Translations under genes and position numbers: made by a program
Notes under the pieces: model-generated
What the model was told of the DNA's origin: nothing
Seen by the model: only the letters and a program-made list of their open reading frames with translations
Databases searched by the model: none
In this document: positions 407 through 18,394 of the stretch, one piece after another
Numbering within the stretch: the first letter of the stretch is position 1
How the letters are laid out: the number at the start of each line of letters is the position of its first letter
IMG/VR virus record: IMGVR_UViG_3300044693_000261
Span: 1-64,000 of that record
Length of the DNA stretch: 64,000 nucleotides
Direction: 5' to 3' (one strand)
Source of the DNA: a virus
Taxonomy: Duplodnaviria > Caudoviricetes

Positions 407-1707
407 GCGGGAGTTTGCGCCGGCATGGCGATCACGGCCCTGTCGGTCACCGACAGCACCTCCAGCGGCGTGCCAGCGGCGAGCGTCATCGTGCCCGAGG
501 TGACACCCACCGTCGTACCGGCGGTCGCCACCACGATCAGCGTCGTCGCGACGGTGCCGACCGGCGCGGCCAGCCCGAGAGTGATCGCGCCCGGCAGCGC
601 CAGCAGCTGACCGGGAACGGCGTCGATCGGCTCGGACAGCGTCCGATAGCCGGCCACGTCAGTGCCCAGGTCGACCGCGCCGGCCAGGCTCGGCACACCA
701 GGCAGGCTCTCGGTGGGCATGGCGTGCGCGAGCGCGCCGGGCCGGTCCGCGCCGGCGGCCAGCGCTTTCGCGGCGGGCGCGGTGCCGTTGCGGCCGCATT
801 CGATGGCGTGGCTGACGGTCTCGTCGGGCTCGCTGAACAGCAGGCCACAACGGCAGCCGTAGACCTCCTCGGCTCCGGCGGGCAGCACCGACGGGTCAGC
901 GGGGTGCAGCAGGCGCACGCCGCCGACCTCGAACCGGTCGCCGATGCGGCGCACCTGGCCGTCGGCGACGCGGTGCGTGGCACGCACGCGGGTGTCGTGC
1001 TTGGTGATCCACTGGGTGTGGGTGACGCCGAGCGCGCGGGCGGCCGCCAGTGAGGCGTCGCCGGCGAGCGCGGTGGCCAGGGTGCGGCCGGATAGCAACA
1101 GCCAGTTGCCGCCCTTGCGGTGCTGGGCGCGCACCATGTCCACGACCTGATCGAGGGTGTCGGCCTCGGCGCTGGCCTGGTCGATCGTCTCGCGCATGGC
1201 GTCGGCGTAGTGCTGGGCGGACTGCCGGACGCGCTCGGCGGCGTCCTGGGCGGCGGCCGCCATGGATGCGCCGTCGAACAGCGTGGTGCCGGCAGCGCTG
1301 TGGCCCAGACGGCCGGCGACGTCGTCGACGCTGCCGGTGAGGATGCGGCGCGCGGCGGGCAGTGCGGCCGGTTCGATCTCGTCAACGGCCTTGGCCGGGA
1401 CGATGTAGCCGGCGTCCAGCGGGCGCGGCTCGCCGGCGGTCTGGCCGGACCAGAACTTGGTGCCTCGGCGCGCCTTGGGCCCGTTGAGCCGGGCGAGGAT
1501 CACGGCGATGGTGCGATCCAGCCACGCGGTGATCACTCCGGCCATGATCGCCTCGTTGGCGCGGGCGCGGGCGTCGGACAACGCGGCCAGCTGATCACGC
1601 TGCGGTCCAGGGGCTGGGTTCGGCGCGGCCTCGGTCACCGTGATCGAGTTCGCCTGGACTGCCGGGAGGCTATCGCCAGGCAGCGGCTCGCGCGCCGCGC
1701 TGCTCAC
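403..1707 (-). CDS. phage head morphogenesis / minor head protein (Mu gpF, SPP1 gp7 family)
   Basis: Motif WITKHDTRVRATHRVADGQ...HPADP...YGCRC; directly downstream of the portal. Confidence 0.85.
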   Translation of the reverse strand: MSSAAREPLPGDSLPAVQANSITVTEAAPNPAPGPQRDQLAALSDARARANEAIMAGVITAWLDRTIAVILARLNGPKARRGTKFWSGQTAGEPRPLDAGYIVPAKAVDEIEPAALPAARRILTGSVDDVAGRLGHSAAGTTLFDGASMAAAAQDAAERVRQSAQHYADAMRETIDQASAEADTLDQVVDMVRAQHRKGGNWLLLSGRTLATALAGDASLAAARALGVTHTQWITKHDTRVRATHRVADGQVRRIGDRFEVGGVRLLHPADPSVLPAGAEEVYGCRCGLLFSEPDETVSHAIECGRNGTAPAAKALAAGADRPGALAHAMPTESLPGVPSLAGAVDLGTDVAGYRTLSEPIDAVPGQLLALPGAITLGLAAPVGTVATTLIVVATAGTTVGVTSGTMTLAAGTPLEVLSVTDRAVIAMPAQTPA

Positions 1708-3235
1708 CCTCGCTTCCGGCAGGCAGCTCCTTGACCTCGTCGGCGGGCAGCGTCAGCTCGCTGTAGCCGCTCTGCGCGCGCATGCCGTCCAGCTGTGAGT
1801 CCATGTTGCTGTAGAGGTTGGACAGCTGACTGGACAGCGCGCCGCCGCCATCGCCGCCGGGCGGCAGTGCGGGCGCGGCCGGCGCGCCGCCGATCACGGG
1901 CAGCTTGGACACGGCCTCGGCGTCGCCGGCGTGCTCCGGGTCGCTGTCCTGGACGATGACGCGGCCGCCCGGAATCCACAGGGTGCGCGTGGCCGGGACG
2001 TCCCAGCGATCCAGTCCCATCGTTTCGCGCAGGTCGTCGAGGGTGATGCCGCCCTGGGCGAAGGCGCTGAACGCGCGGTCGATGTCGGTGCGCTTATTGC
2101 GGCCGAGCACCCAGACGTCGCTGATGTCGTGCTGGAGGTAGACGTCGTCGTCGAATCCGCCGGGGGTGAGCTGATCGAGCTGTGCGTCCAGCATGGCCAG
2201 CAGCGGACCCTGGCTGTGCTCCCACCACGAGTAGACCTCGGCGTCGGCGTTGTCGAAGGTGCGGCCGGACGCGTCGCCCATCATCGACTCGGGCACGCCG
2301 AACGCGATCGAGAACTCCTTCTCGGTGCGCGACATCGTGTCGCCCCACTGCGTGTCGCGCGGGGTGCCCGAGGTGTCGACCCAGTTCATCTCGTCGGTCT
2401 CGATCACCGTCGTGCGGCCGGCGTGGTCTGGACCACCCTGGAAGCGCGATTGCAGGCGGATCTCGGTGGATTCGGAGATCGGACCCTTGACGCTGAGGAT
2501 GCCGCCGGGGCGGCCGTCGTTCTGAAGGAACCGCCGGTTGTAGAGGCGGGCGTACTTGTCCAGGTCGGCCGAGAGGCCGGCGGCCTCCATTGGCGACATG
2601 CCCCGGCTGAACATCGTGGGGTGCGGGCTGCGGACCCACACCACACCCGAGGGCTGATCGGACACGTCGGCGTCGGGATCCCACGGCGGCAGGTAGTCGT
2701 AGCCGCCGTCCTGCGCGCCTTTCAAGATCCGGAACGAGCCGATGGGGGTGTTGGACCCGGGCAGGATGTCGACGCGGTCGGCGTCGAGCAGGTTCACCGA
2801 GTAGATGCCGCCCTGGTTGTTGCGCACCGCTTCGATGAACACGCCCCGGCTGGACAGCACGTAGTTGGCGACCAGGCGGTGTCGCCAGATCTTGGCCACC
2901 TCGGTCGGGTTGGCCTTGCGGTTGAGCACCCGCAGCAGGCGACGCTGTTGGGGGTCCAACTCCTCGGGCTTGAGGATCTGGCCGTCGCGGGGATCGCCTT
3001 CGCGCAGGATCATGCGCCGGTTGATCGCGTTGGCGCAGATGACCTCGACGCAGCGGAAGATGTACGGGTTGAACTGGTATCCGTCAGCGACGGCGCGGTC
3101 GACGTTCCAGTCCTTGATATAGGGCTGGCCGGGGGTGGTCCAGGTGCGCGGCTCCGACATGACGCGCCCGGCGAGGCCCTTGGTCTCGACCCCCCGGAAC
3201 ATCCGGCGCAGCGCGGGCAGGAACTCCCGAGGCAC
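1670..3235 (-). CDS. phage portal protein (HK97-like)
   Basis: Motifs RGMSPMEAA, FLQNDGRPGGIL, FSIAFGVPESMMG, TFDNA, ITLDDLRETMGL. Confidence 0.92.
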   Translation of the reverse strand: MPREFLPALRRMFRGVETKGLAGRVMSEPRTWTTPGQPYIKDWNVDRAVADGYQFNPYIFRCVEVICANAINRRMILREGDPRDGQILKPEELDPQQRRLLRVLNRKANPTEVAKIWRHRLVANYVLSSRGVFIEAVRNNQGGIYSVNLLDADRVDILPGSNTPIGSFRILKGAQDGGYDYLPPWDPDADVSDQPSGVVWVRSPHPTMFSRGMSPMEAAGLSADLDKYARLYNRRFLQNDGRPGGILSVKGPISESTEIRLQSRFQGGPDHAGRTTVIETDEMNWVDTSGTPRDTQWGDTMSRTEKEFSIAFGVPESMMGDASGRTFDNADAEVYSWWEHSQGPLLAMLDAQLDQLTPGGFDDDVYLQHDISDVWVLGRNKRTDIDRAFSAFAQGGITLDDLRETMGLDRWDVPATRTLWIPGGRVIVQDSDPEHAGDAEAVSKLPVIGGAPAAPALPPGGDGGGALSSQLSNLYSNMDSQLDGMRAQSGYSELTLPADEVKELPAGSEGEQRGARAAAWR

Positions 3236-4437: not shown

Positions 4438-4952
4438 GAGCCGCCGTTGCCTCCCTTCTCCGCCAGAACGGCCGTCGCCAGCGCGGCCACGAACAGCCAG
4501 AACTTGTGCCAGGTCTGGTCGAGCAGCTTGCCGCCGGTGAACGGCGCGCCGGGGCCGAGGCGGTGGAGGAAGCCCTTGCCCAGCGCGTCGTGCATCGCCT
4601 GGGCGGTGTATTCGCGGTCCATGTAGTAGTGGGTGACCGCGCTGACCAGCTGGCCGGCGGCGATGGCCCGCCAGCCGAGGCCGAGGCCGAGCACCCGACT
4701 CACCAGCGCGAGCAGCGCGACCTGGGTGGCGGTGTAGCTGGCGACGTGGCCGGCACAGGCGAGCCTGCCGGTGCGGGTGCGGTGCGCGCAGGTGGCGCGG
4801 GTCGTGCACTCGTCGCGGTGGTGGTCGGCGTGACCGCGCCGGCGCTTACGCCAGGATTGGCTTCCGGTCTGCATGTAGTAGTCGCCGAGGTCGTGCGCGA
4901 TCAGGCTGGCGGCGAGCACGGCGACGAAACGGATGGCGCGAGCGGTGTTCAC
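4434..4952 (-). CDS. DUF3307-like membrane protein
   Basis: HDLGDY..QT, AC..HV..Y, THYYMDR, DQTWH pattern. Confidence 0.75.
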   Translation of the reverse strand: MNTARAIRFVAVLAASLIAHDLGDYYMQTGSQSWRKRRRGHADHHRDECTTRATCAHRTRTGRLACAGHVASYTATQVALLALVSRVLGLGLGWRAIAAGQLVSAVTHYYMDREYTAQAMHDALGKGFLHRLGPGAPFTGGKLLDQTWHKFWLFVAALATAVLAEKGGNGGS

Positions 4953-5164: not shown

Positions 5165-5727
5165 CAGGGTCGCCACCACGCGCGGCCGCTGGCGCGCTTC
5201 TCGGCGACGTGGGCGCGGTAGGACTCGATCAGCTTCGCCATGCGCTGCCGTGCCCACTCCGGTGCGCCGCTGAACGTCTCCTCGGCGCGTGCCAGGTCGC
5301 TCGGATCCTGCGGGTAGCTGTCCAGCCGAGGCTGAAAGTCGGGCTCGGTCGCGTAGCGGATCAGCTGACGTGCGCTCACGCCCAGCTGGCGACCCTGCCG
5401 CTGCTCGGTCAGCCACTGCTGGCCGAGGTAGATCATCTCGCGCGTGGGCAGCTCGGCCTCGGGCTCGCGCGGCGGGTGCTCGGCGTCCCACTTGTCGGCG
5501 GCCTCGGCGGCGGCGCGCACGAACCCGGACGGCTCGCGGTGCGACGGCGCGACCGCGCCCCACACGCGCGCCGCCTGGTCCCAGGCGATGCAGGGGCCGA
5601 ACAGCGCGCGGCCGATCTCGACCTCGCGCGAGGCCGGCTGGAGCGCGGCCCAGCGGGCATATCCGGCGCGGGTGCTCTCGTTGTGCTGGCGGTTGACGGC
5701 CCACCACTGCTCGAAAGTCTCGGTCAC
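5164..5727 (-). CDS. hypothetical protein
   Basis: GTG start overlapping the upstream stop, high GC3. Confidence 0.6.
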   Translation of the reverse strand: MTETFEQWWAVNRQHNESTRAGYARWAALQPASREVEIGRALFGPCIAWDQAARVWGAVAPSHREPSGFVRAAAEAADKWDAEHPPREPEAELPTREMIYLGQQWLTEQRQGRQLGVSARQLIRYATEPDFQPRLDSYPQDPSDLARAEETFSGAPEWARQRMAKLIESYRAHVAEKRASGRAWWRP

Positions 5728-5927
5728 GGCTTGCACTCTCCGTTCAGGGCCCGCTCGCACTCGCGGCAGGTGACGTTGCGCGGGTCGCTGGTGACGTTGC
5801 CGTAGCGCACCTTGTCGCCGCAGATGGCGGTCACCGGGAACCGCTGCGACAGCCACAGTCGCAGTCGGCCCACGTGGTGGAACTCGATCTTTCTCAAGAC
5901 CTGGCTCCCGTACAGGATTTCGTCCAT
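5724..5927 (-). CDS. small Cys-containing hypothetical protein
   Basis: AAGGAGGG RBS and the GTTCCG promoter motif upstream. Confidence 0.6.
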   Translation of the reverse strand: MDEILYGSQVLRKIEFHHVGRLRLWLSQRFPVTAICGDKVRYGNVTSDPRNVTCRECERALNGECKP

Positions 5928-5983: not shown

Positions 5984-7078
5984 CTAGCGCGCGCGCCGCT
6001 TCGACGCCCACAAGTCGATTCGGTCATAGATCTCGGCCAGCACCACCGAGGCCAGCTCACGCACCTTGCCCGGATCGCCGGCCACCGTCATCGCGGCCGC
6101 GTACTGCGCGGCGTCCCGCAACGCCTGCCGCGTCTCGAACTCGCCGCCCTGCCTGCGGCAGTAGGTGACCACCGCGTAGAGCACGTCATGCAGGAACTGC
6201 ACCGACGCCCCCATCTCGGCGGCCGCCGGCACCGTGTTCTGCATGGCCACGTCGGCCAGCGTCGCCCAGTGCTCGTAGGTCAGCCAGTCCGGCAGCGCCC
6301 GCGCCGGCGCGTCCAGTACGAGCCTGCCCTGCGCCGCTGGGCCGCCGGCCACGGTGGTCCGGCCGTCGCCGAGGTCGGCGGTTTGGCCGGCGATGTGGCC
6401 GGCGTAGACGCCAACGCCGTCGCGCACGATCGGTTCGGCCGTCTCCAGGTCGCCGGTCTGCTCCTCGAAGAAGGAGCGCACACGTTCGCGGCGGCTGGCC
6501 AGCACCGGCAGCACCGAGATCGGCAGGTTGCCCGCGCCGGTCTCGCCGGCGTGCTCCTGCTCGTACTGCTCGACGACCTCGTTCTGCATGGCCTTCAGTC
6601 GGGTGATGACGGCGTTGGCGAAGCCGAACAGGAAGTCGCGCAGGAACGTCACCCGCGACACCCCCGCTGGCTCGCGGGTGCGCGCCATCTCATTGGTCGC
6701 CTGCATGACCAGCGAGGTGTAGAGCATCTGCGTGCGGTCCAGGTCGCTGCGGTAGCCGTAGAGCGTGGCGGACTCGATGGCGTGCCGACCGCGCCATCCC
6801 CGCGTGCTGGACTCGCAGCCGAACACGAAACCGATGGCGGTCAGCAGCTCGGCCTTCTCGTAGGTGTAGGGCGCGTGCATCGTGATCGTCACGCTGTCGA
6901 GACCGCCCTCGTCCTGCCCGCCGGCGGCGTCGAGCATGGCCTGACTGATGCCGTATTCGGTGATCAGCCGCATTGCCTTGCGGCTGGCGGCCTCGGCCTC
7001 CCTCGGCTCGGTGTCGACGCGCTGCGCCCGGTCGAGCAGGGCGCGGACGCGCTTGAGTCGTCGGTCCATCTCGGTCAC
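5984..7078 (-). CDS. DUF2786 domain protein
   Basis: RLKRVRALLDRA...EAEAASRKAMRLITEYGIS; FLRDFLFGFA. Confidence 0.8.
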   Translation of the reverse strand: MTEMDRRLKRVRALLDRAQRVDTEPREAEAASRKAMRLITEYGISQAMLDAAGGQDEGGLDSVTITMHAPYTYEKAELLTAIGFVFGCESSTRGWRGRHAIESATLYGYRSDLDRTQMLYTSLVMQATNEMARTREPAGVSRVTFLRDFLFGFANAVITRLKAMQNEVVEQYEQEHAGETGAGNLPISVLPVLASRRERVRSFFEEQTGDLETAEPIVRDGVGVYAGHIAGQTADLGDGRTTVAGGPAAQGRLVLDAPARALPDWLTYEHWATLADVAMQNTVPAAAEMGASVQFLHDVLYAVVTYCRRQGGEFETRQALRDAAQYAAAMTVAGDPGKVRELASVVLAEIYDRIDLWASKRRAR

Positions 7079-7121
7079 GTGGTGATCCTCTCCAGTCCGG
7101 AACGGGTCAAGGGTTGCCAGC

Positions 7122-7562
7122 CTAGCAGGGCTCGGCGACCGCCCGGCCGCGCGTGAACTCACGCAGCAGCGCGGCGGCGGCCGCCTTGGTGTGTCGGCGG
7201 CCGATACGCCACCGACCGGTAAAGGCGAACCATTCACGGGCATAGGGGGAACGGACAATGTGCCCGATCACGCGGTCACTGTAGATGACGTGCCAGCCAC
7301 CCTCGGAGCGTTTACGTAGGCCGGTGAACGGCGGCCTACGCACGAAGCTCGTGCCACATTCGGTGAGCACGATCCTGTCGACAATGCCGCTGTTCGTTCG
7401 CGTGAGATATTCGACCGTCGCCTGTCTTGTGCGCACGCCTTCGACGCCGACGGGCCGGGCGATGTGGCGTATCTTCAGCCACCCTCGCCCGCCGTTGACT
7501 TCCCTGATGACCATTTCGCGCTTGATATCGACCAGCGCTATTTCGGTCGCCTCCTTGGCCAT
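7122..7562 (-). CDS. hypothetical basic protein with lower-GC codon usage
   Basis: AAGGAGG RBS before ATG; visibly more A/T-ending codons. Confidence 0.6.
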   Translation of the reverse strand: MAKEATEIALVDIKREMVIREVNGGRGWLKIRHIARPVGVEGVRTRQATVEYLTRTNSGIVDRIVLTECGTSFVRRPPFTGLRKRSEGGWHVIYSDRVIGHIVRSPYAREWFAFTGRWRIGRRHTKAAAAALLREFTRGRAVAEPC

Positions 7563-7600
7563 GTTCTGCGCACCTCCTTGTACGACGACCATCGAACATC

Positions 7601-7904
7601 GACGGGGACAGCGGGAAGCCTTCCCCGTCGGCTGCGACGGGGAAGGCGACGGGGAACGACGGGGAATCAGTCCCGGACGGTGCATCGGGTCAGCACGGTC
7701 TGGCACTCCCCGTCGCGGGTGGCGTGCTCCTTCACGGTTCCCCGCAGGCTGATCACGGTTCCCCGTAGCTCGGGGAAGCAGCGGGAGGCGGTCCACTTCA
7801 CGGTTCCCCGTTCGGTGTCGATCACGAGGAGCGTCCGCACGCCGTAGTCCCCGTCGATCTCCCACTGGACGCGCACCGTCCCCGTGACCTCCAGACGCTC
7901 CCCG
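7601..7904. repeat. cluster of GACGGGGA(A)/TCCCCG repeats with a polarity switch near 7670, including hairpin 7619-7646
   Basis: Plus-strand GACGGGGA at 7601, 7636, 7648, 7658; opposite-orientation TCCCCG cores at 7622, 7707, 7739, 7760, 7805, 7848, 7879, 7899. Confidence 0.75.
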
Positions 7905-8452
7905 ACGGTGCCGAAGTGGGCGTTGACGCGGCCGGCGGCCTCCTCGGCGCGCTGCCGCGCCTGCTCCTCGGCGTCAGCGGCGTGCCGCATGCCCTCGCGG
8001 ATCAGCTTCTCGGCGAACTCGATCTGGCGGGGGCTCATCTCGCCCTTGTGCAGCAGGTCCAGGGCGAGGCTGCCGAGGGTGCCGGAGTAGTCGGGCAGGT
8101 AGGTCAGCTCGGCCAGCAACGGGTGCGCGTCGACCAGGGCGGCGATCTTGCCGGGCAGGGCGGCCAGCTTGGCGGCCTCGCGGCGCTCGCGGCGGGCTTC
8201 GCGCAGCTCGCGCTCGTGGTCGCGCTTGGCGATCTGCTCGTGGGTCATCCACGCGCCGCCGCTCGCGCCGGTGGCGGTGCGGCAGCCCCAACACCAGCTG
8301 TAGTCGAGCAGCGAGGGGTAGTGGGCGGTGCCGTTGCACTTCCAGCAGGGCACCCAGACGTGCTCGACGCCGCCGATCATGCGGGTCTCGCCGGCCTCGT
8401 GGATCTTGACGAACAGCTCTGCCGGGACTCCGTTGATCGTGTGCTGGACCAT
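7667..8452 (-). CDS. hypothetical protein with an N-terminal CxxC zinc finger and a C-terminal OB-fold-like region
   Basis: CWKCNGT...CWGC; C-terminal HFGTVGERLE...KWTAS...GTVKEH..RDGECQTVLTRC; full promoter motif upstream. Confidence 0.7.
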   Translation of the reverse strand: MVQHTINGVPAELFVKIHEAGETRMIGGVEHVWVPCWKCNGTAHYPSLLDYSWCWGCRTATGASGGAWMTHEQIAKRDHERELREARRERREAAKLAALPGKIAALVDAHPLLAELTYLPDYSGTLGSLALDLLHKGEMSPRQIEFAEKLIREGMRHAADAEEQARQRAEEAAGRVNAHFGTVGERLEVTGTVRVQWEIDGDYGVRTLLVIDTERGTVKWTASRCFPELRGTVISLRGTVKEHATRDGECQTVLTRCTVRD

Positions 8453-8577
8453 GGCGCTGACTCCCTCTCGCGTGCGGAACACCACAAGCATAACCAGCGC
8501 CGAGAGCTTGGGTCAACGACTACTTTCCGTCACTGTCTCAGGACACCCCCACCTCGTTCGACCCGCCTCGAACATGA

Positions 8578-8674
8578 GACAGCCGTGAGACAGCCAGAAA
8601 GCCTATTACGCGCGCGCGTACGCGTACACACGCACGCCTGCGCATAGGCTGCCCTGCGCTGTCTCACGGCTGTC
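8578..8674. repeat. 17-bp perfect inverted repeat around a 31-nt alternating purine/pyrimidine tract, directly downstream of traB (candidate clt or origin-like site)
   Basis: GACAGCCGTGAGACAGC 8578-8594 and GCTGTCTCACGGCTGTC 8658-8674; inner AGCCTAT/ATAGGCT; alternating tract 8607-8637. Confidence 0.7.
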
Positions 8675-8709
8675 AGGTGTCTCACGGACGGCCGTGCGGG
8701 CCTGTCACG

Positions 8710-10743
8710 TCACGCGCTGTGCTCGCGCACGCGACCCCGGAACATGTACTGGCCGTCGCCCACGCGCTCGATCTCGCCGGACTCCAGCAGGGCCTCGATC
8801 CGGCGGTGCACCGTCGCCCGCGACAGCGTGCTGGCCTCCACCAGCTGCTTGGGGCTCACCGGCTCCTCGGCCGCCTGCTCCAGTCGAGCGCGGAACGCCT
8901 CCTCGGCCTCCGCCGGCTCCAGCTTCGCCGCCGCCGGCGGTTCGTCGTCGAGCTTGGGCAGCTGGCTCAACGACACGTTGGCGATGGGCGGGAAGTCGTC
9001 GCTGAAGACCTCGGCCGGATCGAAGTCGTCACCCAGCTTGCCCGGACGTCCAGTCATCCGATGATCACTCCTGTCTATCTCGTCGGGGACGACCAGCGTC
9101 CTCCAGTACCCGCCGCCGGGCTTCCCGATGGCGTCGTCATCTTCCCCGTCCGGTTCCCCGTCGCGTTCCCCGTCGGCGACCTGCGGTTCCCCGTCGCGTT
9201 CCCCGTCGGCGTCGAGGTCTTCCCCGTCAAGATCGTCGAGTTCCCCGAGCGGGTCCCGCTCGCGGGTGGCGTACGGCTTCCCCGCGACGCGGAAGGTGTC
9301 GGGGTCGAGCTCGGGCTGTTCCCCGTGGTAGAGCCGGTCCAGCGCGGCGGTGATCTCCTCGTCGAGGTAGGGCACACGCCACTTGGTCGGGACCACGTCG
9401 CCAATTTCGATATATCCGACACCGGGGGTGTCGGCCGAGATAGCAGCCGTGTCGACCTGGTCATAACCGTTCAGAATATTCTTCGACTCGCCGCTCTTGT
9501 TGGTGCGGAAACAGACCCGCACGCCGAGCTGGCCCTTAATCTGCGAGGAACCCAGCGCCTCCAGTGTCGGATACTGCGTGGCGAAGATCAGAATGACGCC
9601 GACCGACCGGGCGCGCCGAGCGATCGACTTGAGCTGATTCAGTGCATTCGTCAGATCGCCGTCGCCGGTCAGCTCGGCGCATTCGTCGATGATGGCGACG
9701 ATCACCGGATGACTGGCCGAGGGCTTCCACACCTTCGACCGCCACAGTCGCCGCGACAGGCCACCGCGCTCGCTGACGATCCGGTAGATCGTCTCCACCA
9801 TCTTGACGGCCTCGGGCTTGTCGACCGCCAGCCAGCCGCCGTCGCCGGCCGAGCGGGCCCACTGACCGAACTCTTGGCCACCCTTGAGGTCGATCAGCCA
9901 CGGCACGGCATCGACGGCCGACAGCACGTTGGCGATGATCAGGTTGAGGAAGCTTGACTTGCCCGCGCCGGTCGCGCCGGCGACCAGCATGTGCAGGCCG
10001 CCCCAGCCCTCCTTCCACATGTTCAGCCACAGCGGCTTGCCGTTGGTCTGCCGGCCGAGAAAGATCGGCTGCTTGATCGAGGTGATCAGCTTGGCCTGGT
10101 CGAACTCGACACCACTGGCGTAGGGCTCGCGCTCCTCGTAGATCAGGTGCGTGATGTGCGCGTCGGGCGTGGCCTCCACTCGCAGCTTGCCGCGCTTGAG
10201 TCGCAGCAGCTTCTCGATCCTGCTCACCGACCGGGTCAGGTCATCGGCGGACGCGCCGTCGATCGTCGCCCGCCAGCCGGCCTCGGTCACCCGGAACGCG
10301 CCCTTGGGCATCTTCGCGCCGATCTCGCCGATGGCCTTGGCCACGCCTGGCCACGCCTCGACGACACGCTCCATCTGGATGCGCTGCTCCAGTCGGCCGT
10401 TGGTCGCGAACAGCACGGTGTAGAGCAGGGTGCCGACGAACCACGTCCAGAACATGCCGGCGTGCCAGGGCGAGATCAGGCTGGCGGTGACCAGCCACGC
10501 GGTGATGCTGGTGGTGACCGCGACGCCGAACGCCCTGCTGGGGCCGTCCTGCACGAAGTGCGTGAGCAGCGCCAGCGCGGCCACCAGCGAGGGCAGCAGC
10601 ACGGCGAGCGTGAGCTGCCAGCCAACCTGCGGCAGGCAGGACACGCCGCCGGCGGCGTAGACCAGCGCCGCCAGCGTCAGCGGATACGTCGCTCGGCGGT
10701 GACGCCGGTAGGCGTCCCAGTAGGTGCCGACGTTTGCGGCCAC
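8710..10743 (-). CDS. traB: TraB-type FtsK/SpoIIIE conjugative DNA translocase
   Basis: N-terminal TM helices, HMLVAGATGAGKS Walker A, LIDLKGG, IIDECAEL Walker B, ARSVGVILIFATQYPT, C-terminal wHTH (LSRATVHRRIEAL..GEIERVGDGQY). Confidence 0.88.
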   Translation of the reverse strand: MAANVGTYWDAYRRHRRATYPLTLAALVYAAGGVSCLPQVGWQLTLAVLLPSLVAALALLTHFVQDGPSRAFGVAVTTSITAWLVTASLISPWHAGMFWTWFVGTLLYTVLFATNGRLEQRIQMERVVEAWPGVAKAIGEIGAKMPKGAFRVTEAGWRATIDGASADDLTRSVSRIEKLLRLKRGKLRVEATPDAHITHLIYEEREPYASGVEFDQAKLITSIKQPIFLGRQTNGKPLWLNMWKEGWGGLHMLVAGATGAGKSSFLNLIIANVLSAVDAVPWLIDLKGGQEFGQWARSAGDGGWLAVDKPEAVKMVETIYRIVSERGGLSRRLWRSKVWKPSASHPVIVAIIDECAELTGDGDLTNALNQLKSIARRARSVGVILIFATQYPTLEALGSSQIKGQLGVRVCFRTNKSGESKNILNGYDQVDTAAISADTPGVGYIEIGDVVPTKWRVPYLDEEITAALDRLYHGEQPELDPDTFRVAGKPYATRERDPLGELDDLDGEDLDADGERDGEPQVADGERDGEPDGEDDDAIGKPGGGYWRTLVVPDEIDRSDHRMTGRPGKLGDDFDPAEVFSDDFPPIANVSLSQLPKLDDEPPAAAKLEPAEAEEAFRARLEQAAEEPVSPKQLVEASTLSRATVHRRIEALLESGEIERVGDGQYMFRGRVREHSA
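9142..9327 (-). repeat. array of GACGGGGAA repeats inside traB (candidate TraB recognition sequences)
   Basis: Exact TTCCCCGTC at 9142, 9154, 9166, 9187, 9199, 9220; variants at 9241, 9278, 9319; partly 12-bp periodic. Confidence 0.75.
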
Positions 10744-10764
10744 GGTGGTGCTCCTGTTCCTTTC

Positions 10765-11580
10765 CTAGGCTGTCTTCTGCTCGAAGAACTTGGCCGCGTT
10801 CCTGGGCATCTGCACGCCCGAGCTGTCCAGGAACGGGGCGTAGAGCACGCGAAAGACGGTGCGCGCCGAGCGGATCGGCTCGATCATCTCGGCGGCCTGC
10901 TCACCGGCGCGGATGACGCCGTCGACGACCCGCTTGTCCAGGTCCAGCCGCTCGGCCAGGTCGGCGATCTCCTGCGACAGCCGCAGCGCGCCCAGGACCA
11001 TGTCGTTGAACAGCTGCTCAAGCTCGTGGGCGGTCTCGGGGCTGGCCTCGGCCAGGTAGGCGAATCGCTCGGCCGCCGTGTTGCTGCGCACGATGCGTGC
11101 TCCTCCCATTGCGGTAGCCGCCCCTGGTGGGCTGGCCGTTGTCGTTGTCGTGGGCCGGGGTCCGGTGCCGTGTGTGCGCCGCACCCTCTTGACGCGCTCC
11201 TTGGTCTTGCGCACCTCGTTGTCGAGCGCGCCGGCGTTCTCCTTCTTGCGGACCTTGGCCGGGTCGCACTTGTGCTGGGCTCGGTCGCGCAGATCGTTCG
11301 AGCCGACGCCACAGGCCAGGCAGCGCCAGCCACCGCGCACCAGCTGTTTGATCGTGGGCTGGCGGCTGGCCTTGTTCTCGCCGCCCAGGTCAACCCACTT
11401 GCGCCGCTTGTTGGTCCGCTCGGCCTGCCTGAGCAGCCAGGCGTCGCGGCGCGCTTTGTCGAAGGGAGTGGCCAGAGCCGAGCCGAGCTTCGCGCCGCCC
11501 CAGCCGATGCCCCTGGCGGCAGCCTTCGCGGCGGCGGCGCTGACCTTGCGTCCCACCCTCTTGGCGTTGGTCTTAGCCAT
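10765..11580 (-). CDS. hypothetical protein in the transfer operon (TraA-like position)
   Basis: Lies between the DUF2637 gene and traB; basic N-terminus, CLAC motif, helical C-terminus. Confidence 0.65.
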   Translation of the reverse strand: MAKTNAKRVGRKVSAAAAKAAARGIGWGGAKLGSALATPFDKARRDAWLLRQAERTNKRRKWVDLGGENKASRQPTIKQLVRGGWRCLACGVGSNDLRDRAQHKCDPAKVRKKENAGALDNEVRKTKERVKRVRRTHGTGPRPTTTTTASPPGAATAMGGARIVRSNTAAERFAYLAEASPETAHELEQLFNDMVLGALRLSQEIADLAERLDLDKRVVDGVIRAGEQAAEMIEPIRSARTVFRVLYAPFLDSSGVQMPRNAAKFFEQKTA

Positions 11581-12379
11581 CGCTCTCACCGGTCAACCGC
11601 TTCTCCTCCCAGGCGGGGATCAGGTTCTTGGCATAGCCGTTGGTGCCCGCCTCGCGGTCGACGGAGGCGAACGACACGAGACCGGGGCCGCGCCCGAACC
11701 GCACGTCAGGGTTCTCGGCGACCATCCGGTCGTAGATGCGCTTGATCCGTGCGCTGACGGACTCGCCAATCTCGGTGACGGTGCCGCCGTCGGTGCCCGT
11801 GGCCTCCAGTTCGGCCGGCTGCTCGGCGCGCTGCGTCTGCTGCTGCGGCCGGGCGGCGCGGGCGGCGACCTTGGCGGCGGCCGCGTCGTCGCGGTCGGCG
11901 CGGGCTCGCATGTCGGCGCGGATCATCGCCGCGAGGTGGACCATGAGGCCGAGCACGAGCGGGGCCATGGACGCGAACCCGATGACGACGACGGTCCACC
12001 ACACGGGATCGCCGGCCTTGGTGCCGACCCGCCAGTGCTCGATCGCGTTGCCAATCACCGTGGCCACCAGGCAGAAGATCGCAACGGCGGCGGCGTAGGC
12101 CCGTGTCGTGCTCGACAGTCGGGGGTGCAGCCACGCGCGGGTGGCCGCGAGCACCGCGAAGTCGTAGCCGAGGGGGAACAGGTAGGAGACGCCCTCGGCC
12201 AGGCCGATGTCGTGTCCGAGGTTGCGCAGGGTGTCATAGGACAGGATCGCGGTGGCGATCGCGACCACGCCCATGCTCGCGGTGCGCACGGGGTCGACCT
12301 CGGGCGCGGCGTTGGCGAGCGTGAACCAGCCCCATGCCCGCTGATACCAGCGCGGCGATGATCCGAGCAGGTCGGACAC
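11573..12379 (-). CDS. DUF2637 / Spd-like plasmid spreading membrane protein
   Basis: LSYDTLRNLG..IG....YLFPLGYD, ATVIGNAIEH, four TM segments; AAGGAGG RBS. Confidence 0.78.
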   Translation of the reverse strand: MSDLLGSSPRWYQRAWGWFTLANAAPEVDPVRTASMGVVAIATAILSYDTLRNLGHDIGLAEGVSYLFPLGYDFAVLAATRAWLHPRLSSTTRAYAAAVAIFCLVATVIGNAIEHWRVGTKAGDPVWWTVVVIGFASMAPLVLGLMVHLAAMIRADMRARADRDDAAAAKVAARAARPQQQTQRAEQPAELEATGTDGGTVTEIGESVSARIKRIYDRMVAENPDVRFGRGPGLVSFASVDREAGTNGYAKNLIPAWEEKRLTGESDG

Positions 12380-12543
12380 CGGAACTACCTCCTTCGTGTG
12401 AGACACGGCTCGCACTCCGCGACTCCGATCGGCGGTGCAATTTGCAGACTGAGACACCTACTCTGTGTGGTGTCAGGTGCTATAGTACACCAGTGTCTCA
12501 GGACACGTGTGGCACATCCGCGACAGAGAGCGAGGTACGACGA
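12380..12543. promoter_or_regulatory. divergent kor/tra control region with TGAGACAC half-sites and the GTGTCTCAGGACAC palindrome
   Basis: TGAGACAC at about 12399 and 12450; GTGTC-TCAG-GACAC at 12493-12506; TATAGT -10-like hexamer at 12481. Confidence 0.6.
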
Positions 12544-13302
12544 GTGACGATCGAGCGGAGCGACCCGCCTTACATGCAACTCGCCCTCACACTTCGGGCG
12601 AAGATCCTCAACGGCGACATTCCGGACGGATCGAAGTTGCCCTCAATCCGCGACGCCGCTCGGCAGTACGAGGTCAGCGTGGCCACCGCCACCAAGGGGT
12701 ATGCCCGTCTGCATCAGTGGGGGCTGACGCAGGCGCGGCACGGAGAGGGCACCTTTGTCACCCTGGACGACGTCCGCCACAGCGGGCGGGACCGCATGAC
12801 CACGACCCTGATGACTGGACGATTCTTCGGCAAGACCGGCCAGTACGCCAAGATCATCTCGGCCGAGGTGGTCACCGCCCCCGACAACGTCGCCGACGAC
12901 CTTGGGCTGGCGCGCGGCGCGCGGGTCATCCGCCGTCAGCGCGTCACCCACCGGGCCGACGGCACACCGCTGTCGACCTCCATCAGCTACCACGACGCCG
13001 AGCTGGCCGAGGTCGCGCCCAAACTGCTGGAAAAGGAACGGATCGTCGAAGGACCGGCGTACGTGACCCAGGTGACCGGGCGCGAGCCGAATGAGGGCTA
13101 CGACCGGATCCGTGCCCGTGAGGCCACCGCCGAGGAGGCCGAGCTGCTGGGTATCGAGGTCGGCAAGCCCGTGCTCCAGATGGTCACCCAGGTCTTGTCG
13201 ACCGACGGGGAGTCGGTCGAGTACGGGGTGAGCGTGTCCCGCTCGGACCGGGAGATCACCTACCGCTACCCGCTGGGCGACCTGCGCCGGGAGAGCAGCT
13301 AG
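12544..13302 (+). CDS. GntR/HutC-family (UTRA domain) repressor, KorA/TraR-like
   Basis: PPYMQLA..LR..I..G....GSKLPS...VSVAT..K....L...G....HGEGTFV plus UTRA domain; divergent from spd-tra. Confidence 0.9.
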   Translation: MTIERSDPPYMQLALTLRAKILNGDIPDGSKLPSIRDAARQYEVSVATATKGYARLHQWGLTQARHGEGTFVTLDDVRHSGRDRMTTTLMTGRFFGKTGQYAKIISAEVVTAPDNVADDLGLARGARVIRRQRVTHRADGTPLSTSISYHDAELAEVAPKLLEKERIVEGPAYVTQVTGREPNEGYDRIRAREATAEEAELLGIEVGKPVLQMVTQVLSTDGESVEYGVSVSRSDREITYRYPLGDLRRESS

Positions 13303-16783: not shown

Positions 16784-18394
16784 TCAGGCGATGATGCGCG
16801 ACTCGCCGCCGCCCTTGATCGACAGCTCGGGCATGAGCTGCACGCTCGCCCACACTCCGGCGTCCAGCGGGTCCGGCGACTCCTCCGCGCCCGGAACCCA
16901 CCCGGTCCAACAGTCCTCGTACTCGGGGAACGCGCCCACGCAGTGCACGCGGCCCTGCTCCCACACGCCGGCGACCGGCTCGGCGCGGGTGAGCTTGCCG
17001 CGCGCCGCCCACACGCCGATGATGCGCGGCACCCGCAGGCCCTCGGCCCTGGCGACCATCCGCACCATCGTGGTGACCAGCTCGCCGCCGTTGTTGGTCT
17101 CGGCGGCGATGGCGTCCGCGCCCCACTCCTCGGCGACCTCCAGCGCGCGCCGCGCCCAATGCTCCGGTGTGCCGCGCACGGTGGCGTCCTCCAGCACGTA
17201 GAGGTGGTCGCCGCGCACGATGCCCGGCATGCCCTTGGGCGCAGGCCCGATGCCGACCACGACGATGCCGCAGCGGTCGCTGGTCTTCTTCGAGGTGACG
17301 GCCGGGTCGACGCCGACGACGATGCGCCGCAGCACCGGCACCACGTCGGCGACGCGGATGCGGGTGGCCTCGACCAGCGCCGAGGACACCAGCGCGCCGT
17401 CGACGTCGTCCAGCAGCTCGCCGTCAAGTTCCTGGCGGCCGGTCTTGGTGCCCTTGTACCGCTTGTAGATGGCCTCCACGAACCGGGCCGACAGGTTCGC
17501 GAGGTTGTCAGCGGTGCGCCCCCGGGTGACGACGACATCCGGGTCGCCGTCCTCGGCGCGGCGCAGCAGCTCCTTCAGGACCGGATTGCCGCGCCTGGGT
17601 GTGGTGGTAATGATGAACCGGGGCTGGCGGCCCTTGCGGACCGCCGGCAGCAGCGACTCGTCCCAGAGTTCCTGGATGTTCGGGTAGCTGGCCAGCTCAT
17701 CCAGCCACGCGGCGCGGAAGTTGTAGCCGCGCAGCCGGTCCGGGGTGTCGGCCGAGGCCAGCACGATGCGGCTGCCGCCCCGTACGTAGATGACGTAGTC
17801 GCTCTTGTTGTAGTTGAGCAGGTCGTCACCCAGGGCCGCGAGCAGGCCCGACTCCGGTTCCTCAACGCAGATTTTCCTTGCGTCGCCGAAGGTGGGCGCG
17901 ACCAGCGCGTAGTCGCCCGGCTCATTCACCGCCCATTCGGCCAAGACGTTCGCGCCGGTCCAGGTCTTGCCGAAGCCTCGGCCGGCGAGGATGAGCCAGA
18001 ACATCCACGTGACGCCCGCCGGCGGCAGCTGTGCCGCGCGGGCGCGGCGTCGCCAGGCGCGCGGCAGCGGCGGCTCCAGCTCGCGCAGCGCGCACAGCAC
18101 CGGATCGTCCGGCGCGATGTAGCCGGGGGTGCCGGCCAAGCCGAGCGCCGACCAGTCGACGCCGTCCAGGGTCTTGCCGGGCGTGGCCCCCAGGATCGCC
18201 TCGACCAGGTCGTCGAACGGGTCGACGGCGCGCAGGCTCGCGGCCAGGTCGGCGACGACGGCCGGATCAGCGCCCGCGTTCGCGTACGCGCCGACGCCGG
18301 CGGTCGCGGCGGACAGGCGCGCGGCGTCCTCGCCGACCTGGCGTAGGAAGGCGGCCCGCTCGGCGGCGTCGACGGGGTCGAGGTCGTCTGGCAC
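16784..18394 (-). CDS. terL: terminase large subunit
   Basis: AGRGFGKT Walker A, LRGYNFRAAWLDE Walker B, ITTTP, GRQELDGE, VGVDPA, ETNNGG, SPDPLDA. Confidence 0.95.
   Translation of the reverse strand: MPDDLDPVDAAERAAFLRQVGEDAARLSAATAGVGAYANAGADPAVVADLAASLRAVDPFDDLVEAILGATPGKTLDGVDWSALGLAGTPGYIAPDDPVLCALRELEPPLPRAWRRRARAAQLPPAGVTWMFWLILAGRGFGKTWTGANVLAEWAVNEPGDYALVAPTFGDARKICVEEPESGLLAALGDDLLNYNKSDYVIYVRGGSRIVLASADTPDRLRGYNFRAAWLDELASYPNIQELWDESLLPAVRKGRQPRFIITTTPRRGNPVLKELLRRAEDGDPDVVVTRGRTADNLANLSARFVEAIYKRYKGTKTGRQELDGELLDDVDGALVSSALVEATRIRVADVVPVLRRIVVGVDPAVTSKKTSDRCGIVVVGIGPAPKGMPGIVRGDHLYVLEDATVRGTPEHWARRALEVAEEWGADAIAAETNNGGELVTTMVRMVARAEGLRVPRIIGVWAARGKLTRAEPVAGVWEQGRVHCVGAFPEYEDCWTGWVPGAEESPDPLDAGVWASVQLMPELSIKGGGESRIIA

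Follow-up and report, generated by a model that had tools for sequence, protein, structure and literature searches.

The TraB protein of the Streptomyces plasmid pSVH1 recognizes repeated 8-bp motifs in the cis-acting transfer locus, clt, through helix alpha-3 of its winged helix-turn-helix (wHTH) domain, and the clt of Streptomyces plasmids is made up of direct as well as inverted repeats and may extend into the tra gene, as in pWTY27, where it covers 16 bp of that gene (PMC4447253, PMC3583192). The locus described here lies at positions 7601–9328 of the window, the stretch of 64,000 nucleotides that forms the first 64 kb of a linear 103,348-bp virus record in IMG/VR (IMGVR_UViG_3300044693_000261; 70% G+C). 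The record is a tailed phage genome whose host is a high-GC actinomycete, and at this locus arrays of a short word with the core CGGGGA, lying in and beside a gene for a TraB-type translocase, are predicted to form a two-part clt for the phage's own TraB. With the clt of Streptomyces plasmids (pSVH1, pJV1, pIJ101, pWTY27) and with the integrative, conjugative elements of actinomycetes (AICEs) it shares a single FtsK-type pump with a C-terminal winged helix, 7–9-bp repeats clustered at, or close to, the 3′ part of tra with inverted repeats in the locus, and a module that holds a GntR-type Kor repressor and DUF2637/Spd-like genes. However, the phage locus is two-part over 1.7 kb with opposite polarity, most of its copies are inside coding sequence, its replicon is a tailed phage, and its TraB is only ~25% identical to the plasmid TraBs.

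The words of the chromosomal relatives of this pump, KOPS (FtsK orienting polar sequences) and SRS (SpoIIIE recognition sequences), are spread chromosome-wide, with a skew that flips at dif or ter. The phage word resembles them as an 8-bp G-rich word that is probably read by the C-terminal winged helix of an FtsK-family motor, but it is restricted to a single locus of 1.7 kb, with no enrichment in other places. Among larger replicons, the Streptomyces plasmid-phages pZL12 and pSLE1 are said to have a ~90-kb tailed-phage genome with a Streptomyces-type tra gene, and reportedly possess ParA/ParB and replicate as plasmids. The phage is like them in being a tailed-phage genome that carries a Streptomyces-type tra gene; unlike in them, ParA, ParB and integrase were not found in its 103-kb record, and plasmid-type partition or replication genes beside the virion genes, the trait of a pZL12-like phage-plasmid, were likewise not found there. 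Clt loci with TraB recognition repeats are already known, as is a Streptomyces plasmid-phage with a tra gene (pZL12). The clt/TraB literature examined does not describe the two-part layout with its usually inverted blocks, the placement of one block in traB linker codons, the recoding of an unrelated structured domain, or a tailed phage that carries all of this and has neither plasmid nor integration genes.

The CGGGGA arrays and their selection at the DNA level

The word GACGGGGA occurs 15 times in the 103,348-bp genome, 13 of these copies falling within 7601–9228 (1.63 kb), and the core CGGGGA is found 23 times in 7601–9325 vs 49 times in the other 101 kb. In the window GACGGGGA has 14 copies, compared with 4.6 +/- 2.3 in dinucleotide shuffles, and the consensus of the word is c-G-A-CGGGGA-A. 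A cluster of short repeats at the tra gene that is rare elsewhere on the replicon, as in clt, is thereby present; GACCCGGA, which we take to be the word of pSVH1 TraB, has 13 copies in the phage that are scattered and not clustered. The arrays and the two genes that carry them are as follows.

7601–7665, plus strand: array B, four inverted copies (7601, 7636, 7648, 7658) and one traB-oriented copy (7622), in the 104-bp spacer between gene 7667–8452 and the open reading frame orf146
7667–8452, minus strand: gene for a 261-aa protein that starts with a CxxC...CxxC region, continues with a long helical stretch and ends in an all-beta domain
7707–7904, minus strand: array A′, seven sense CGGGGA cores (7707, 7739, 7760, 7805, 7848, 7879, 7899) in the C-terminal domain of gene 7667–8452, within its last 240 bp
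8710–10743, minus strand: traB, for a 677-aa protein of the membrane-anchored FtsK/SpoIIIE translocase type
8746–8883, minus strand: coding region of the TraB winged helix (aa 621–666), with matches to wHTH families
9142–9328, minus strand: array A, nine sense copies in the traB linker at 12- or 21-bp spacing

On the traB strand, the order in the lineage of the window is A (+), A′ (+) and B (− − − + −). Array A, 250–600 bp upstream of the traB stop, comprises six exact GACGGGGAA copies on the minus strand (9142, 9154, 9166, 9187, 9199, 9220) and three variants with CGGGGAA (9241, 9278, 9319), and encodes DGE-type repeats via the rare codons GGG and GAA. Array A′ is written in three reading frames, with RGTV encoded three times as CGG GGA ACC GTG, and includes one copy of opposite orientation at 7771. 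In array B, the copies at 7622 and 7636 pair in a hairpin (7618–7647) whose 13-bp stem is perfect and whose loop is 4 nt long. All coordinates given for 7601–9328 in the initial annotation, which had been made from the letters of the window, are correct. It was also right in placing seven same-orientation cores in the last 240 bp of gene 7667–8452, where RGTV is written three times via GGA codons, and in reporting a strand switch just past the stop of this gene, where four plus-strand copies and one minus-strand copy lie; this switch is frequently conserved in relatives. One antisense core (9084–9089, plus strand) lies just after array A, and at the same place in L001, L002, L004 and L019; it is encoded by a conserved peptide, V-V-P-D/E, and may be incidental or part of the site.

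The arrays are selected at the DNA level. When synonymous codons were resampled 5000 times from the genome's own codon usage, the traB linker was expected to contain 0.76 copies of CGGGGA and the C-terminal 90 codons of gene 7667–8452 to contain 0.34, vs observed counts of nine and seven; none of the 5000 resamplings reached nine in the former or seven in the latter. An excess over a codon-shuffled null had been anticipated in the initial annotation, and it holds for these two coding regions but does not extend to the rest of the genome. The word is read in three frames as five peptides (DGE, DGD, RGT, TGT and VGE), through the rare codons GGG, GGA and GAA. In traB and gene 7667–8452 together (2.8 kb) the core is present 16 times on the sense strand, vs seven times sense and 18 times antisense in the other 84 predicted genes (65.6 kb). 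Between the window and two relatives with ~80% identical proteins (L001 and L002), third codon positions are identical at 27 of 28 sites inside the word vs 458 of 629 (73%) elsewhere. Both relatives keep all nine sites of array A and six of the seven of array A′, and all five copies of array B are invariant together with their spacing in the three sequences, while the hairpin loop varies.

The neighbouring gene supports a synonymous recoding of unrelated coding sequence, as had been proposed initially. Its product matches phrog_2319 (E=1.9e-19) on aa 173–273, and the C-terminal domain is widespread, with tblastn matches in Streptomyces, Gordonia, Erwinia, Aeromonas and Cronobacter phages. In the Streptomyces phages Zuko and KimJongPhill and the Gordonia phage Stormageddon, in none of which an FtsK/TraB gene exceeds the Pfam cut-off, the aligned residues are conserved (e.g., R-G-T-V-K, G-D-Y-G and the Gly before V-K-W), but they are encoded by CGC GGC ACC GTC, GGT GAC and GAC GGC, and only 0–1 cores are present. 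The structure model of the product has low confidence (predicted local distance difference test, pLDDT, 60). The N-terminal half (7940–8452) shows a zinc-ribbon-like pair, CWKC...CWGC, followed by a helical region of ~110 residues. A translational pause at rare codons of the linker was considered as the sole cause of array A and rejected, since the word is also found in non-coding DNA and in other frames.

TraB, its recognition helix and the words of its relatives

The product of traB has hydrophobic helices at aa 20–115, a Walker A motif (GATGAGKS), an acidic linker at ~aa 470–545 and, at the C-terminus, a winged helix whose recognition helix reads S-R-A-T-V-H-R-R-I-E. It matches PF01580 (E=6.5e-10, above cut-off) and phrog_1358 (E=1.6e-37), and shows 23–27% identity over aa 70–493 to annotated Streptomyces plasmid TraB in tblastn. 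An AlphaFold model of the C-terminal 88 residues folds as helix-helix-helix-strand-strand with a pLDDT of ~90 in the core, and all of its top structural matches are winged-helix DNA-binding domains. Judged by its sequence and this model, the protein is a Streptomyces-type TraB translocase, in which anchor, FtsK ATPase and winged helix are all present; the gene had been called traB, with a wHTH in its product, in the initial annotation, and this identification stands. The module context of such a TraB, a GntR-type regulator and a Spd-like DUF2637 gene, is also present.

A word-based search for TraB relatives yielded only three close ones (82%, 81% and 43% identity), and a profile search of 1.84 billion representatives yielded 138 proteins at E <=1e-30, many of them full-length including the winged helix. 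A scan of IMG/VR with the TraB alignment gave no match, and a scan of genome contigs gave only distant motor-domain matches, which were not used. The DNA of relatives was examined at eight loci from the profile search and nine loci from a metagenome scan. An excess of the locus's own short word in the last 750 bp of traB was found at all ten loci tested by synonymous resampling. At least 12 divergent TraB relatives repeat the layout with at least six different words: a sense array lies in the linker before the winged helix, and a second array of the same word follows 0.3–1.6 kb downstream. The canonical plasmid loci (L008–L011, n=4) have a single downstream array or none that is clear, and a pWTY27-like plasmid locus has five TGACACC copies starting 16 bp inside traB, as published. 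The words and recognition helices of the relatives are listed below.

CGGGGA(C): L004, L019 and L027, with the recognition helix SRATVHR, as in the window; CGGGGA with this helix also in L001 and L002
AGTCCCGC: L022, L026 and L030, SSSWFY group
AGTCCCGG: L023, SSSWFY group
CCCGGGAC: L033, SSSWFY group
AGTCGCGC: L020, SSSWFY group
GCGGAAAC: L031, SSSWFY group
GCGGGACT: array word associated with L022-type TraB
CGAGAC: L028, helix KSTWLY
GTGGCCA: L024, helix NERTVYR

No convincing word was found in L021, L025 and L029. Words vary from lineage to lineage and coincide where the helix does; the recognition helix is near-invariant among TraBs that share CGGGGA and are only 40–46% identical, and in the SSSWFY group it begins with SSSWFY and continues with variable residues. 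The linker peptides are wholly different between lineages (DGE, GGD, SGT, ATG, etc.), and the DNA word is kept within each. Spacing between neighbours on the same strand peaks at 12, 21–22 and 33–35 bp, a period of ~11 bp, so that the sites lie on one face of the helix. Clustering at traB, ~11-bp spacing and a word that changes by lineage are what would be expected of TraB recognition repeats, in line with the initial annotation, which had taken the word for the cognate sequence of TraB. Readings based on G-quadruplexes were rejected, as lineages use words without G runs (CGAGAC, CGCGAC, GTGGCCA and CGGAAAC).

The two arrays are usually inverted with respect to each other. Sense and antisense copies in the traB array number 11/2 in L004, 15/2 in L019, 13/0 in L022 and 8/1 in L026, and this array is sense-oriented also in L028, L030, L031 and L032; the corresponding numbers in the downstream array are 5/18, 7/15, 5/15 and 6/10, and this array is mainly antisense also in L028 (twelve consecutive antisense copies), L030 and L032. 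Because blocks of opposite orientation are conserved, the orientation of the word appears to matter. In L027 the downstream array is co-oriented with the traB array, and in L020, L023 and L033 the arrangement is mixed or palindromic. L024, a low-GC locus (53%), has the nearly palindromic GTGGCCAC in both arrays (4690–4787 and 5450–5737), and in L033 opposite copies of CCCGGGAC overlap; with palindromic or overlapping words, polarity cannot matter in the same way at these two loci.

Candidate readers of the arrays and other explanations

We put the probability that the locus is a two-part clt for the phage's own TraB at roughly 0.65. TraB would be a hexameric pump of the FtsK type, anchored in the membrane and acting on double-stranded DNA, and its winged helix would read the word cGA-CGGGGA-A, set at a spacing of about one helical turn in two blocks of opposite polarity. 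Block 1 would consist of arrays A and A′, in sense orientation in the traB linker and at the 3′ end of the next gene, and block 2 of array B, inverted in the spacer beyond gene 7667–8452. As a floppy linker tolerates almost any residues, a docking site can be written there by codon choice; a site within traB would keep the pump gene and its docking site genetically inseparable, and the array would have spread into the neighbouring gene via synonymous recoding of conserved Gly-containing positions. TraB is favoured as the binding protein by the array that always lies within traB, shortly upstream of the part that codes for the wHTH, and by the GntR regulator, which has a better candidate operator in another repeat, TGTCTCA. 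The predicted clt would be needed in cis for transfer. From the analogy with FtsK and SpoIIIE, the opposite polarity of its blocks may mean that pumps load in opposite directions; alternatively, the six winged helices of one hexamer may bridge both blocks into a loop.

To our knowledge, it has not been worked out how a closed double-stranded replicon is moved from one Streptomyces hypha to another by a hexameric ring pump, and we know of no work on the directionality of TraB recognition repeats. A conserved pair of opposite arrays with at least six words offers a testable handle on the mechanism of the TraB pump, and the locus is a clear natural case of a protein-binding array placed in coding DNA by synonymous recoding, including the gene of its own probable reader. 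A bolder extension of the analogy with FtsK, which we regard as speculative and unlikely, is that the words are polar loading sites like KOPS, so that two opposed TraB rings would reel both genome arms through the membrane from the ~1-kb inter-array segment and a phage that shows no sign of being a plasmid or of integrating would transmit its naked genome from one hyphal compartment or hypha to the next, without virions.

Several observations weigh against a clt read by TraB. All proteins of the module co-diverge in few clades, so that TraB is not singled out by a helix that co-varies with the word, and word groups also differ in the C-terminal tail of their DUF2637 proteins. The SSSWFY group has several words despite an identical first half of the helix. 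Inversion of the second array, although frequent, has exceptions at L027, L020, L023 and L033 and is not universal. Array A is partly a 33-bp tandem duplication, so its copies are not all independent. Finally, as integrase, ParA and ParB were not found in the record, a plasmid state from which the phage could be conjugated is not evident.

The remaining genes of the module, some of which are candidate readers of the arrays, and the spacer between traB and the next gene are as follows.

7122–7562, minus strand: orf146, 146 codons with the ribosome binding site AAGGAGG and an ATG at 7562, directly after array B
8530–8700, no strand assigned: spacer between traB and the next gene, with five copies of TGTCTCA and not the CGGGGA array
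10765–11589, minus strand: 274-aa CxxC protein, upstream of traB in the same operon
11573–12457, minus strand: DUF2637 membrane protein (Spd-like), upstream of traB in the same operon
12334–13302, plus strand: divergent GntR/UTRA regulator (GntR E=1.2e-12, UTRA E=6.1e-22)

It is possible, though we think it improbable, that the arrays are docking sites for another protein of the module (the DUF2637 tail, the 274-aa CxxC protein or orf146), which would then act beside the pump, e.g., by tethering DNA at the membrane. The DUF2637 tail has a conserved helix-turn-helix-like stretch, AGT-x-GYAK-x-x-x-P in the CGGGGA group and T-P-GYGRKVV in the CGGGAC group, and SpdB2 binds double-stranded DNA, but this binding was reported to be non-specific (PMC4170104). 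No sequence-specific DNA-binding domain was recognizable in the module besides those of TraB and the GntR regulator, and no DNA-binding family was detected in the other candidate readers. Moreover, array A is in traB itself, just 5′ of the wHTH coding part, in every relative, and it is the recognition helix of TraB that stays near-invariant among otherwise distant proteins sharing the CGGGGA core. The GntR repressor is unlikely to read the arrays, as its own divergent promoter lacks the CGGGGA word and carries TGTCTCA instead. A still lower probability is given to iterons, a parC-like centromere, or a pac/cosB site read by the small terminase, for which the proximity to traB would be incidental. 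Iterons and centromeres, too, consist of short phased repeats, in both direct and inverted sets, the module is flanked by terL (16784–18394) and the portal gene (1670–3235), and the pWTY27 iterons are 7–8-bp words in both orientations (PMC3583192). However, Rep, ParA and ParB were not detected in the genome, the array stays in the traB linker where the neighbouring genes of relatives differ, and the word changes with the TraB lineage.

Two further explanations are both very improbable. One denies the arrays any function at the DNA level and takes them for an acidic linker expanded by slippage, in which Tandem Repeats Finder indeed detects 2.3 repeats of a 33-bp unit and 6 of a 12-bp unit, together with a terminator hairpin after gene 7667–8452, where the copies at 7622 and 7636 form the 13-bp perfect hairpin just past the stop codon. 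This is contradicted by the resampling, the homologue codons, the relatives and the third-position constraint: the same word is written in three frames of an unrelated structured domain with rare codons that homologues in phages without detectable TraB do not use, it recurs inverted in non-coding DNA, synonymous sites within it are constrained, and distant relatives keep the layout while word and linker peptides differ. The 33-bp duplication leaves the copies in other frames, in the other gene and in the spacer unexplained. A terminator scan found no canonical terminator after gene 7667–8452, and the 13-bp hairpin lacks a U tail; the hairpin may double as the terminator of the preceding operon. 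The other explanation, put forward in the initial annotation, is a KOPS-like genome-wide polar word that steers the translocase to a terminus near 7670. TraB is a relative of FtsK, and two local blocks converge at the stop codon of gene 7667–8452. Nevertheless, only two of the 15 copies of GACGGGGA are outside the cluster, compared with ~7 expected by chance in 103 kb, and the strand bias of CGGGGA beyond the cluster goes with the coding strand; as the word is not enriched there and its skew follows gene orientation, the system is not KOPS-like, and this proposal is refuted at the scale of the genome.

Transfer module, second repeat and replicon

The order DUF2637 gene, 274-aa gene and traB is kept in all relatives, and the same module order is present in the Streptomyces plasmids L010 and L011. 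The 274-aa protein keeps a C-x-x-C-G motif in all relatives. The GntR/UTRA regulator, which occupies the same position in L001, L002, L022 and L026, is by its sequence of the type that serves Streptomyces conjugative plasmids as KorA/TraR repressor; the role of traR/korA in these plasmids has been described (PMC4447253). The gene orf146 had not been called previously, being hidden within an over-long 247-aa open reading frame (7122–7865). It has homologues in 150-aa genes of L001 (9170–9622) and L002 (9192–9650), matches no known domain or family, and its third-position G+C is below that of its neighbours.

The repeat TGTCTCA has 11 copies in the window, vs 4.7 expected. Five lie at 8534–8684, in the spacer between traB and the next gene, and three at 12399–12500, in the divergent promoter region of the GntR gene; the repeat recurs in L004 at 8060–8200. 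The spacer also contains a perfect 17-bp inverted repeat (8578–8594 / 8658–8674), and a promoter-like site lies at 8516–8487. From its sequence, this spacer is probably the operator of the GntR (Kor-like) repressor, which would link the two promoters.

The transfer module, which looks like a Streptomyces conjugation module, is located among the virion genes, of which the following were placed by coordinates.

403–1707: MuF-like protein
1670–3235: portal
16784–18394: large terminase, terL

An HK97-type capsid, a baseplate J protein and a lysin were further detected. Between 1670 and 18394, all on one strand, the transfer module together with DUF2786/DUF7168 and DUF4097 genes splits terL from the portal gene, so that the packaging block, usually contiguous, is interrupted here by the module. 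The record is 91% complete as estimated by CheckV and may thus be incomplete; in this 103-kb record, Phage_integrase, ParB_N and AAA_31 families gave no match. In megablast, no record of the plasmid or phage collections was similar to 7000–11000 at the nucleotide level. The locus is further evidence of complete plasmid-type transfer modules in tailed actinophages; such modules may make the boundary between infection and conjugation less sharp. Several Streptomyces 'plasmids' of 125–132 kb (CP109288.1, NZ_CP107934.1, NZ_CP122459.1 and others) have a portal 34–36% identical to that of the phage, and in at least one of them, NZ_CP122459.1, an FtsK/SpoIIIE gene also matches TraB with 30% identity. 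These portal-bearing 'plasmids' look like phage-plasmids related to phage Gilgamesh.

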